This document shows, in pieces, positions 1-60,474 of a DNA stretch of 64,000 nt; position 1 is the stretch's first letter, and each line of letters opens with the position of its first letter. The stretch comes from Octopus vulgaris (taxonomy: Eukaryota): contig OX597815.1 of the NCBI GenBank assembly GCA_951406725.2, positions 79,546,001 through 79,610,000 of the forward strand. The letters run 5' to 3'. A program made the position numbers and the translations under genes. The notes beneath the pieces were generated by a model that saw only the letters and a list, made by a program, of their open reading frames with translations, ran no database searches and was not told the origin of the DNA.

Positions 1-95
1 CAGCTATATGCATGAGAATACATACATAAAACAAAAACATAAAAATCATACAAATCAAACAAAAACATGCAAATCTGCACATATGCATACATAGT
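1..95 (+). mobile_element. 3' UTR remnant of R4/Dong-like RLE retrotransposon
   Basis: Matches the UTR of the copies at 265-330 and (reverse) 5365-5420; runs into a (TACA)n tract. Confidence 0.65.
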
Positions 96-156
96 GCATA
101 CATACATACATACATACATACATACATACATACATACATACATACATACATACATA

Positions 157-455
157 AGAGAAAGCTAATTCGAAGACTACAGATCCAATCCAGCACTGGA
201 ACTGTAAAAATCTGTAAAACGTTTCAAAAGTTTATCATATATAAATATATGAGCATGTCTAGATATGCAACTATATGCATGAGAATACATACATCAGACA
301 AAATATAAAAATCTGCACTTATGCATGCATACATACATACATATGTACAAACAAAAATGTTGATGCCGAAATTCCAATAAAAGAGTCTTGAATTTAGGTT
401 AGAAACCGGCTCTTTCTTTATTGGCAAGAAATCTTGAAATAAAACTGAATAATGA
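157..455 (+). mobile_element. 5'-truncated R4/Dong-like RLE non-LTR retrotransposon (ORF end + 3' UTR)
   Basis: Encodes RKLIRRLQIQSSTGTVKICKTFQKFII, near-identical to the end of the 5135-5835 copy; both ends in (TACA)n. Confidence 0.8.
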
Positions 456-661
456 CATACGTACATACATACATACATACATACATACATACATACATAC
501 ATACATACATAAACAAAACATATGTATATACACTTTATATTTCATACTTTTTTCCTCTTTTCTTTTTCTCGCTCCCCCTCTTTCACATTTTTTGCCGTAC
601 ACATTTGTTTGCTTTCTTACAAAAAATCTAATGCCCTTAGCTAAGACTTTTTTTGCGAGTA

Positions 662-736
662 ACCAGATCGAACAGTCTCAAGTGTAACTGCCCGAAACTG
701 TAAGGACATCTGGTAACTTGACTGAGGAAAGAGGGC
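662..736 (+). ncRNA. Predicted hammerhead ribozyme, non-circularly permuted strand order
   Basis: acaGUC (672-677); stem I tcaagt 678-683/acttga 716-721; gccc-GAAA-ctgt 690-701; CUGAGGA 722-728; gggc 733-736; outer helix accagat/atctggt. Confidence 0.75.
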
Positions 737-933
737 CTTTGTATCGTTTATCTCCTGAGATGTTTTATTGTCCTCTATTGCGTTTTTCCATATATATATA
801 TATATATGTATGTATATATATAGATATATATGTATGTATACATATATATATATATAGGTATATATATATACACATATGTATATACACATATATTTATATA
901 TACATATTTTAATATGTATTTATGTGTGTATGT

Positions 934-974
<41 letters not shown>

Positions 975-1470
975 GATATATATGTATGTATACATATATA
1001 TATATAGGTATATATATATACACATATGTATATACACATATATTTATATATACATACATATATATGTATATGTATGTATGTATGCATGTTTGTATGTATG
1101 TATGTATGTATGTGTGTGTGTATGTGTGTGTATATATATATATATATATAAATTTTCAGTATTCGAGAGAATCAGGCATTTAAATACTAAAAGCACTAAA
1201 GTAGAATCGGGGATAGCGCACCTGTATACCGACAATATGTACTGACATATACGTATTTACTAAAATTAATATGGATTGGCCCTTTCTGTTATGCATACTT
1301 TCACACGTAACTGACTGAATATACAAAGTTCACCAAAATCTTACTGGGCTACATTTACTGCACGTTTGCCACTTCCACTACAGACTCTAGATCCAAACGT
1401 ATGAAAGGTTCCGAGTTAGGTAAAGAATAGATAATACTACACCCCCCACTCACATTTATTCTCACAGATC

Positions 1471-1535
<65 letters not shown>

Positions 1536-1536
<1 letters not shown>

Positions 1537-1757
1537 CGGGAAGCTTTATGAAAATAAACAAAAGACTAAGGCAGGTGGAATACAAACAAACAATTGTATT
1601 AGTATGGCGCTCAGGAATATAAATAAAACAAGTCTTTTACGTTTCGAGCCTACGCTCTTCAACAGAAAGATACACAGAAAAGAAACACGGAGAGAAACAA
1701 GGAGAGAAAATAAATGCGTGCAGAGGCTAGCGAATCAACATGGCGATCATGGCGATA
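1536..1757 (-). mobile_element. Short PLE pLTR-like repeat, copy 1 of 3, with variant minimal hammerhead
   Basis: Homologous to 14838-15030 and 43951-44210; flanked by (TA)n; minus strand tcttt-CUGUUGA-a-gagc gtag gctc-GAAAC-GUA-aaaga at 1633-1670. Confidence 0.65.
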
Positions 1758-1789
1758 TATATATATATGTATATATACAGATATGTATG

Positions 1790-2210
1790 TTTTCTTTTAT
1801 TCTTTTACTTGTTTCAGTAATTTATTGCGGTGATGCTGGATTACAGCCTTAAAAGGTTTCAGTCGAAGAAATCGACCCCAGGACTTATTTTTGTAAGCCT
1901 AGTACTTATTTTATCACTGTCTTTTGCCGAACCGCTAATTTACAGTGACGTAAACACACCAACATCGGTTGTTAAGCGATGGTGGAGAGACAAACACAAA
2001 CACAGGGACACACATAAATATATGTACATATATATATATATACACAACGGTCTTCATTCGGTTTCCGTTTACCAAACCAACTCACAAGGCTTTGGTCAGC
2101 CCGAAGCTATAGTAGAAGACACATGCCCAAAGTGGCACGCAACGGGACTGAACCAGAAACCATGTGGTTGGGAAGCAAGCTTTTTACCAAACAGCCACAC
2201 CTGTGCCTGT
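1790..2210 (-). mobile_element. tRNA-derived SINE, family B
   Basis: Reverse complement of the 34334-34750 copy (head gtggctgtttggtaaaaagcttgcttcccaaccacatgg; tail gaaacaagtaaaagaataaaaga). Confidence 0.85.
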
Positions 2211-2254
2211 GTATGTATGTATGTATGTATGTATGTACGTATACACACGCAAGA

Positions 2255-2334
<80 letters not shown>

Positions 2335-2495
2335 CGTATACATACACAGACACGCACACCCACACACACAATTTGAAGCTAGAAAAGCACGGATAAGGAA
2401 CATTAGGTAAATGAATGACTTTAGAAATAAATGGGTCACCATTAACTAAACGCCACAAAGGCAGTCAAAACACAGACTGATAGACAGACAAACAG

Positions 2496-2542
<47 letters not shown>

Positions 2543-2881
2543 CAAGCAGTCTTATCTATATCTTTCTTTGCTTCGAGACAAAGAGATGTATTAGCGAGTT
2601 GCGGCCGAGGCTGCGTGATTATTTGTCATTTCGAACTGTCGCCATCTTTTTTAGTTTTTAAATCCCGCCACATTGTCTTGAATCTATGTATGTCGGTGTC
2701 TGTTTGCTCCAGCAACGTTTCAACATGAAGATGACACGTACACCTTATTCTGTCGTGTATTAGAACAGTAATGGCTTATATTTCGGCGATGTTGGACAGA
2801 AGATTTGCGTGTAGGTCTATGTATGTATGTATGTATGTATGTATGTATGTATGTATGTATGTATGTATGTATGTATGTATG

Positions 2882-2915
<34 letters not shown>

Positions 2916-3359
2916 TGTATGTATGGATGGATGGATGGATGGATGAATGCGCGCGTGCGTCTGTATATGCGTGTGTACGTACAAGTGAATGTTTGTGTTT
3001 GTGTATGTGCGCGCGTGTGTATAAATATTTACATAGCTTAGTATGCATTAACGTGTGCGTGTGTATATGTGCATATATTTGTGTATATATATATGTATAT
3101 ATATATGTGTGTGTGAGTGTGTGTATGTGCACATATGTTATGTATGCGTGTTTGCGTGTGTGTATGGATGTGTGTGTGTATGTGCGTATGTGCATGCATC
3201 TGTGCATGTACGTGTGTGCGTGTGTATGTATGCCTATTTACGTGTATGCTATAGACCAGATGTTGCTTAGGATTAAGAATTTCGCTTTGCAATCATGAAG
3301 TGCCGAGCACAACACCAATGCATAGCATCTTGAATAAGCACCTGTTGATACTCGGCCAC

Positions 3360-19934: not shown

Positions 19935-20012
19935 GCGGCTGAAGAAGGCCACAGACATACATTATGCATTGTTATAAATATGTCTAATAAAGGCCCGAAA
20001 CATATGTACCGC
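19935..20012 (+). ncRNA. Predicted minimal type I hammerhead ribozyme
   Basis: gcgg-CUGAAGA-a ggcc...ggcc c-GAAAC atat GUA-ccgc; palindromic stem III ACATATGT. Confidence 0.75.
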
Positions 20013-57947: not shown

Positions 57948-58072
57948 GGTCCCGGGTTGAGTCGGGGTTAACCACAGTAAATAAGTTACTCAATACATAG
58001 CAGAGTAAATTAATTTATTTTATAGAAGGAGCTTCTACAGGACTAGAACTGTTTCATTCAAAAGAAATCATC

Positions 58073-58129
58073 AGGAGCTTCCTGATGATTTCTTTTGAAT
58101 GAAACAGTTCTAGTCCTGTAGAAGCTCCT
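58073..58129 (+). ncRNA. Predicted type I hammerhead ribozyme inside a 131-bp palindrome
   Basis: aggagcttc-CUGAUGA-t ttc tttt gaa t-GAAAcag ttctagtc ctGUA-gaagctcct. Confidence 0.75.
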
Positions 58130-58191
58130 TCTATAAAATAAATATATATATGAAACTCCTTCATGCCCAAGGTACCATAAAAACCCCGAAC

Positions 58192-59578: not shown

Positions 59579-59624
59579 AAATTCCTCTATTTACATAATA
59601 TTTATATATATATATTTATATATA

Positions 59625-59687
<63 letters not shown>

Positions 59688-59689
<2 letters not shown>

Positions 59690-60468
59690 CATATATTTTA
59701 TTTATTACACTATTGTATGACTGAGCGCCTTCGTGTCGATTCGATTCGTTTGGTTTCGTTTCGTTTCTTCTTTTTCTCTAAGCTGGTTTTTATATATAAT
59801 TATGACGCGAAACTCTATAACTCCTTCTTCTCTCTTTCTTTCACCCTTTTTGCTTCCTTCCTCTCTATCTCTCTCTCTCTCACTCCTCATCTCTCTCACA
59901 GCCGGGTCTACGAACTTCCTTTCGCCGATGGCCTTATTCAAGTAAACATGTTTCTTCCTGCGCTCGTGAAAAAATTTTTTTCCTCGTCTAGGCTTATAGG
60001 CCCTCTTTATTTGTTTTCCTGTCCTGTTTCTATTCTTTCTTGTACTGTATTTTTTGTAATTGTATTTTTATTTTGTATTTGTTTTTATTGTATTGTTTTT
60101 ACGTCCTGTTTTTGTCACATTTTTCCCTTGTTTTTACCCCCTGCAAAGGAATTTTATTTAATTCTTTCGCAGGAAGGATTAGTTCGACGAGACGTGTTCT
60201 GTCCTCACCTTCGAAACACGCTGGAGTTGAACTAGGGACAGCTGATGAAGGGGATTTTTCCTTGTGTAGTTGTCTTATACTCTGTTTTTTCGTTGTTAAA
60301 AAAATGATCCGTTCCATGCTGTTTTTACGTTTTCGTTTCTCATTGAGTTCTACGTCTATTTGTGATGTCCTGTACACACGTATATATATTTATATATGCA
60401 TGTATATATACATGTAGATGTAGGTACGTACATATATGTTTGTATGTATGCATATATTTTATTTATTA

Positions 60469-60474
<6 letters not shown>
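59688..60474 (+). mobile_element. Non-coding 761-bp unit with 26-bp terminal direct repeat (pLTR/retrozyme-like)
   Basis: tgcatatattttatttattacactat at 59688-59713 and 60449-60474; embedded in (TA)n; contains a predicted ribozyme. Confidence 0.65.
60180..60253 (+). ncRNA. Predicted hammerhead ribozyme, non-circularly permuted strand order
   Basis: cgtGUU 60193-60198; stem I ctgtcc/ggacag; ccttc-GAAA-cacg 60208-60220; CUGAUGA 60242-60248; agggg; outer helix tagttcgac/gttgaacta. Confidence 0.75.

Follow-up and report, generated by a model that had tools for sequence, protein, structure and literature searches.

Hammerhead ribozymes of types I, II and III are circular permutations of three strands, namely the CUGAnGA core, GAAA and the cleavage site. 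Non-circular permutations have been reported as type SGC from metatranscriptomes (583 sequences) and as type CSG from metagenomes (2 sequences), and cleavage in vitro is documented for both types (Eckert et al., 2023, PMC10085705). In type SGC the blocks run in the order site, GAAA, core, a strand of stem II begins 0-2 nt after CUGAnGA, and stems I and II are connected at their outer ends by a fourth helix. That work takes the A9-G10.1 bond as uninterruptible, and the available parts of the literature describe only insertions of 1-2 nt there (PMC10085705, PMC4209133), one unpaired base at this point being common in the hammerheads of Penelope-like elements (PLEs; PMC4209133).

The hammerheads of PLEs and non-LTR retrozymes are of type I and often minimal and dimeric; the retrozymes are Penelope-derived, non-coding units of some hundred bases that occur in tandem or singly with one hammerhead per unit, and the available text of a 2026 preprint on them uses type I models only (PMC4209133; bioRxiv 10.64898/2026.07.22.740005). 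Processing of precursor RNA has been proposed as the task of other PLE hammerheads (PMC4209133). Naiad elements were reported to be without canonical hammerheads, 9 Naiad rows being marked 'HHR_core' and 8 'HHR_half_core' (Craig et al., 2021, PMC8557442), and 5' truncation, partial tandems, a tail, inverted pieces and (TA)n targets are known as marks of Penelope-like and Naiad elements (PMC8557442). At the level of sequence comparison, the present analysis of an Octopus vulgaris locus establishes a hammerhead with four helices, an upstream stem II strand and a conserved core, and finds this layout again downstream of Naiad reverse transcriptases (RTs).

Strand layout and conservation

The window (the whole stretch of 64,000 nucleotides that was analysed) holds two ribozymes of this layout, one in a copy of a repeat termed family A and a second in a repeat termed family C, for which the cut is predicted after 60198 (Table 1). 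The sequence-only reading had described the former as a pseudoknotted hammerhead of non-circularly permuted strand order, sited in a small retroelement within TA sequence and beyond the reach of standard searches. The strand order (site, GAAA, core), which is none of the circular permutations, is borne out; stems I and III, the U-C site, GAAA and the core (here CUGAGGA) lie where they had been placed, as does the extra helix, termed P below; the setting proved to be a TA-targeted Penelope-like repeat; and an Rfam scan of window positions 1-3000 gave no ribozyme, only low-complexity, repeat-driven microRNA matches. The proposed start at 662 has to be moved to 657, because the conserved stem II partner is 657-661 rather than 733-736 with 690-693, a helix that is complete in only 5/71 copies, versus 35/71 for the upstream strand.

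Table 1. Ribozyme strands and repeat copies in the window
Feature	Position	Strand	Remarks
Family A copy, 5'-truncated and internally deleted	544-790	+	ends at a (TA)n run (end read from sequence)
Stem II 5' strand; G10.1 = 657	657-661	+	upstream of all else; covaries with 689-693 between families A and B
Helix P, 5' strand	662-668	+	89.9% of family A cells paired; helix here in 13/13 representatives
Non-bulged strand of predicted kink-turn, between P and stem III	669-671	+	G670 in 61/72, A671 in 69/72
Stem III 3' strand (672-675), U16.1 = 676, C17 = 677	672-677	+	
Stem I 3' strand	678-683	+	94.2% of cells paired; A-U to G-C change in family B
Stem II 3' strand 689-693, GAAA 694-697, stem III 5' strand 698-701	689-701	+	
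Predicted kink-turn: 3-nt bulge, GA, one further base	702-707	+	G705 in 68/72, A706 in 67/72
Helix P, 3' strand	708-714	+	
Stem I 5' strand 716-721, CUGAnGA core 722-728	716-728	+	core is the last element of the ribozyme
Copy-specific alternative stem II partner (sequence-only reading)	733-736	+	not conserved
Family C repeat, young, ~785 bp	about 59619-60474	+	
Family C ribozyme, intact, second in window	60173-60248	+	II-5' 60173-60177, GAAA 60213-60216, core 60242-60248

From 109 BLAST matches in 120 loci, 72 distinct family A copies spanning the region were obtained. The hammerhead core (CUGAnGA, GAAA and UH) is complete in 57 of these, its positions being kept in 68-72 copies while N7 is free (G 19, T 12, A 18, C 23). 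In stems I and III 94% of cells are paired, the strongest covariation being between columns 674 and 699 (A-T 35, T-A 19, C-G 3). Stems I, II and III enclose the core, with covariation and a G10.1-C11.1 pair, as in a hammerhead; the covariation among genomic copies that the sequence-only reading had proposed to test for was found. In 13 representatives the upstream pairing is built in, because a descriptor chose them; the stem II pair beside the core is G-C in all 13, and helix P, which the descriptor did not require, is likewise present throughout, in 12 of them beginning 0-2 bases past the stem II strand. When strands were exchanged among 11 lineages, stem II became complete in only 2/110 cases.

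In the consensus kink-turn, two helices flank a 3-nt bulge and the tandem G-A and A-G that come after it. Positions 669-671 with 702-707, between stem III and helix P, are taken to be a predicted kink-turn by this consensus. The loop at this place fits the pattern in families A, B and C as well as in the resident Naiad of this genome; in several of the metagenome cases a short bulge takes its place.

The window copy has two internal deletions, matching unit positions 1076-1119, 1449-1596 and 1652-1727 of copy L002, and is aged: mean identity in family A is 84% over the ribozyme, and the upstream stem II strand is decayed by two changes (A at 658, T at 660). It may be weak or dead, and because of its age the earlier description as active or recently active suits the sister families better, the top matches of which are 93-98% (family B) and 98-99% (family C) identical.

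The partner of stem II and the resulting topology

The two candidate partners of stem II were compared on an alignment of families A and B, the copies of which were chosen on the core plus stems I and III alone (59 chosen, 58 used; L101 was dropped as a duplicate of L099, and L035, a chance match, was kept). For the upstream helix 85.8% of cells are paired, 5/5 pairs show double changes and the commonest pair beside the core is G-C, and the score of the whole structure was reached by 0/500 shuffles, slid controls being 16-36% paired; these counts are of cells and not of events, families A (with three stem III states) and B representing few independent changes. Helix P was not counted on this alignment because family B is misaligned there. 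In family B stem II reads GGCTGG/CCAGCC where family A has GGGCA/TGCCC, three pairs being changed on both sides.

The fold of the sequence-only reading, i.e. a plain type SGC hammerhead with stem II formed 3' of the core after a 4-nt insert, is very improbable on this evidence. Its helix pairs in 47.6% of cells of the same 58 copies, with the core-adjacent pair open in 47/58 rows, and has no downstream strand in family B or in 5/7 metagenome cases (described below). In the window copy the downstream duplex is indeed the stronger one (-8.1 versus -2.0 kcal/mol), and family C keeps a conserved, weaker downstream alternative of 4 bp with two G-U pairs; a well-kept copy, however, favours the upstream helix (-9.9 versus -4.4 kcal/mol). 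Position 733 is G in only 2/72 copies, that of the window among them, and the downstream pairing looked right there because of this rare G and the two changes in the upstream strand. Likewise, the registers adjacent to the core that type SGC would use pair in just 25-28 of 65 cells in the 13 representatives. That the whole fold is chance complementarity within an AT-rich repeat can be practically dismissed: the RNAfold z-score of 640-780 is only -0.81, a value that is uninformative here because the fold is knotted and RNAfold cannot model pseudoknots, while covariation across unrelated families refutes chance, and shuffles give few matches (3 classified descriptor matches in 100 shuffles of the whole window; 2 split-layout matches in 40 shuffled metagenome sets). 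Two further places in the window match the descriptor without stem II, namely 19,939-20,007, on both strands, and 58,014-58,140, which was set aside as a near-perfect inverted repeat of ~60 bp between TA runs. A standard type I fold using sequence 3' of the family A core was rejected by eye, there being no stem I partner.

Because the conserved stem II partner lies upstream, A9 of the core is not joined to G10.1, and the topology differs from type SGC for the same reason. The block order is that of type SGC and the placement of the stem II strand is not. With SGC and CSG the present form shares the core and its pseudoknotted state, the cyclic strand order and a fourth helix between the outer end of stem I and that of stem II; helix P would be the counterpart of the stem I-II interaction helix. 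It differs in being opened at A9/G10.1, where the published descriptors exclude it, in residing in retroelements of an animal genome rather than metatranscriptomes and metagenomes, and, in the families of this genome, in the predicted kink-turn that joins stem III to the fourth helix (PMC10085705, as far as its available text describes these forms). If the layout is joined end to end, the same cycle as in SGC, CSG and GCS would result, with helix P replacing the stem I-II interaction. SGC would then be opened between P and stem III, CSG at stem III/P on the other strand and the present form at A9/G10.1, as a fourth opening of the cycle. Tolerance of a broken backbone at this point is plausible, because a single unpaired base there is common in PLE hammerheads.

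Family A, its sister families and Naiad elements

A search of this 2.8-Gb assembly with 640-780 gave 1,696 first-look candidates, of which 40 were scored and which do not represent a copy number; a 33-base exact pattern from family A has 82 matches in the genome (control 0). The unit of ~750 bp is variably 5'-truncated and ends ~110 bases past the core in TA runs; (TA)n flanks are seen at its copies as an observation that is not counted against background. Many copies follow the 3' portion of a further unit (partial tandem, pLTR), and some carry a 60-base tail or are joined to inverted pieces. Family A is non-coding, the longest Met-to-stop frame having 115 codons, and has no ORF related to Naiad proteins. 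With its 5' truncation, partial tandems, tail and inverted fragments it has the features of a non-autonomous Penelope-like element. Like the non-LTR retrozymes it is a short non-coding unit; in contrast to their tandem units with a type I hammerhead each, its copies are mostly truncated singles or partial tandems, and its hammerhead is non-circularly permuted with a full stem III (compared with PMC4209133 and the available text of bioRxiv 10.64898/2026.07.22.740005). At L040:2120-2900 (+) a broken Penelope-like ORF with a C-terminal endonuclease lies inverted and abuts a family A copy.

The same layout recurs in further repeats. Family B is about 70% identical to family A over 660 bp and has a tandem spacing of 768 bp. 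Family C shows no BLAST similarity to family A; a 21-mer from it has 366 exact matches, and the split layout is complete in 64/89 copies that hold the whole region. Two more families with other stems are represented by one copy each (L268:780-870, + strand; L287, - strand, core at 442). Separately, a descriptor match of ordinary type I order with long stems was seen in L138 (- strand, about 2650-2750), near a Naiad 3' UTR fragment.

The layout is also found at the ends of Naiad elements, with which family A shares (TA)n targets, 5' truncation, partial tandems, tail and inverted pieces (PMC8557442) and from which it differs in having no ORF. Inspected by eye, two Octopus Naiad consensus 3' ends (PMC8557442, supplement) have the same split layout with other stems, and a motif derived from them occurs in exact form 334 times in this genome, versus 0 for the control. 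Locus L145 encodes a C-terminal Naiad-type RT running into a 3' UTR that ends in a decayed copy of the Naiad ribozyme, and its full-length relatives carry an N-terminal GIY-YIG domain. Among 80 of 399 metagenome loci matched by an alignment of these relatives, seven hold split-layout ribozymes, all on the sense strand and 3' of the RT match, with no other type present. When no demand was made on stem II, both strands of the 80 loci yielded only seven compact triples of core, GAAA and site, again all on the sense strand, and all in site-GAAA-core order with an upstream stem II of 5-6 Watson-Crick bp. An ORF bearing the DKA motif of Naiads is present in six of these seven loci, and one with an N-terminal GIY-YIG-like motif in four. 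No hammerhead was found in the other 73 loci; of all 80, only 42 have at least 600 bases downstream and 38 have under 600. Viral contigs that were searched held no Naiad relative.

The supplement of PMC8557442 was inspected by eye at 60/81 occurrences of a six-letter term, a non-exhaustive sample. The split form was seen at seven places (1, 4-6, 8 and 32-33, with a stem I of only 2 bp at place 1) and intact type CSG at another seven (11, 13-16, 19 and 20). By their headers, places 14-16 are Nippostrongylus Naiads and 32-33 Octopus, and the remaining ones are placed among ctenophore, cnidarian and nematode entries solely from their order in the file; the readable 'HHR_core' and 'HHR_half_core' entries are full CSG or split hammerheads. 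Places 34 and 36, in the hemichordate part, share a conserved base-paired structure without hammerhead core, possibly another ribozyme. A further side observation concerns Naiad-like RTs with a ubiquitin C-terminal hydrolase domain (L169, L196 and proteins P0027, P0028, P0030, P0031, P0033, P0034 and P0038-P0040; precomputed PF00443 for the proteins, a similar C-terminal stretch by eye in the two loci), a domain without mention for Naiads in the available text of PMC8557442.

Predicted cleavage, mobilisation and significance

With a probability of roughly 0.7, the window feature is an aged, likely self-cleaving hammerhead with its strands in the order II-5', P, III-3'/site/I-3', II-3'/GAAA/III-5', P', I-5'/CUGAnGA; it is situated close to the 3' terminus of a non-coding Penelope-like repeat whose likely source of mobility is a Naiad element. 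The RNA would adopt the ordinary hammerhead core, except that the backbone is interrupted at A9/G10.1; A9 would stack on the G10.1-C11.1 pair without a backbone link, and coaxial stacking together with helix P would hold the core. The kink-turn or 3-nt bulge would make the helix of stem III and P turn back to stems I and II, supplying a bend whose explanation posed difficulties for Eckert et al. (PMC10085705). By analogy with other hammerheads, the cut is predicted after C17, between 677 and 678. Read-through or tandem transcripts would be cut into unit-length RNA, possibly re-closed to a circle, which the Naiad RT-endonuclease would copy into TA repeats.

Most genomic copies run across the predicted cut, so templates would be uncleaved or re-ligated: 95/99 family C copies hold >5 bases upstream of it, and 30/30 family A copies cross it. 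Family C 5' ends fall within 0-2 nt of the cut in 2/99 copies (P=0.13) and within 0-5 nt in 4/99 (P=0.03, in a bin chosen after looking and with ends blurred by microhomology); such ends number 0/30 in family A and one duplicated locus among 30 in Naiad, and one inversion junction in L328 lies, by eye, at the predicted cut. RNA reads of a related species (X8-X10) and contigs X1, compared with L051 at 80% likeness, form no end pile at the site, the reads being unstranded and of low depth there, and reads cross the unit junction, as might be expected of a circular RNA form, but genomic tandems explain such crossing.

These spanning copies are what might be expected if the fold were selected as a binding site for the Naiad protein, or cut only with that protein, with slight self-cleavage on its own. 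In the same direction point the anole Poseidon hammerhead, without which insertion still took place in vitro and whose cleavage was confined to particular conditions (PMC11167929), and minimal PLE hammerheads, which cleave poorly (PMC4209133). Every catalytic position is, however, kept across unrelated stems while N7 is free, and stem III has a full 3-5 bp instead of the minimal dimer type, which makes this account unlikely. A little less likely still is that the ribozyme is as described but family A was moved by another Penelope-like clade with a C-terminal endonuclease. The inverted ORF fragment in L040 is of this kind, and Neptune and Hydra elements also favour TA repeats (PMC8557442); yet L040 is one case among the loci examined, the fragment's 3' end lacks such a ribozyme by eye, and family A agrees with the Naiad ribozyme in layout, helix lengths and linkers. 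Family A shows no DNA similarity to the Naiad 3' UTR outside the ribozyme layout, the Naiad ORF (N-terminal GIY-YIG, DKA, C-terminal RT) occurs in other carriers of the ribozyme and in none of the family A, B or C loci, and no autonomous partner sharing a 3' end with these families was seen among 30 of 140 RT matches. Mobilisation of family A by Naiad elements is nevertheless the preferred reading, a likely tie that rests on shared layout and insertion habit.

Judged from its sequences, this is a real, covarying hammerhead in several high-copy families of animal retroelements, and no match to its layout was found in print: the literature covered (including work since 2022-2023, few subscription journals, mostly by title) holds no split-core hammerhead and no permuted hammerheads in Naiads or animals, and PMC13725137, in its available part, merely cites Eckert et al. 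(2023). On balance, the discontinuous-core hammerhead with its upstream strand and kink-turn is probably an active, unreported topology, which together with type CSG would constitute the missing Naiad ribozymes across animal phyla. The split core breaks the assumption that hammerheads consist of three unbreakable blocks with six possible orders, and therefore all published descriptors would undercount. It would also explain why Naiads, which are among the most abundant invertebrate retroelements, seemed to be without ribozymes, and would move non-circular permutations from metagenome rarities to high-copy elements of animal genomes, where the presence of intact CSG and split forms in one retroelement clade would offer a system for tracing the origin of permutations.
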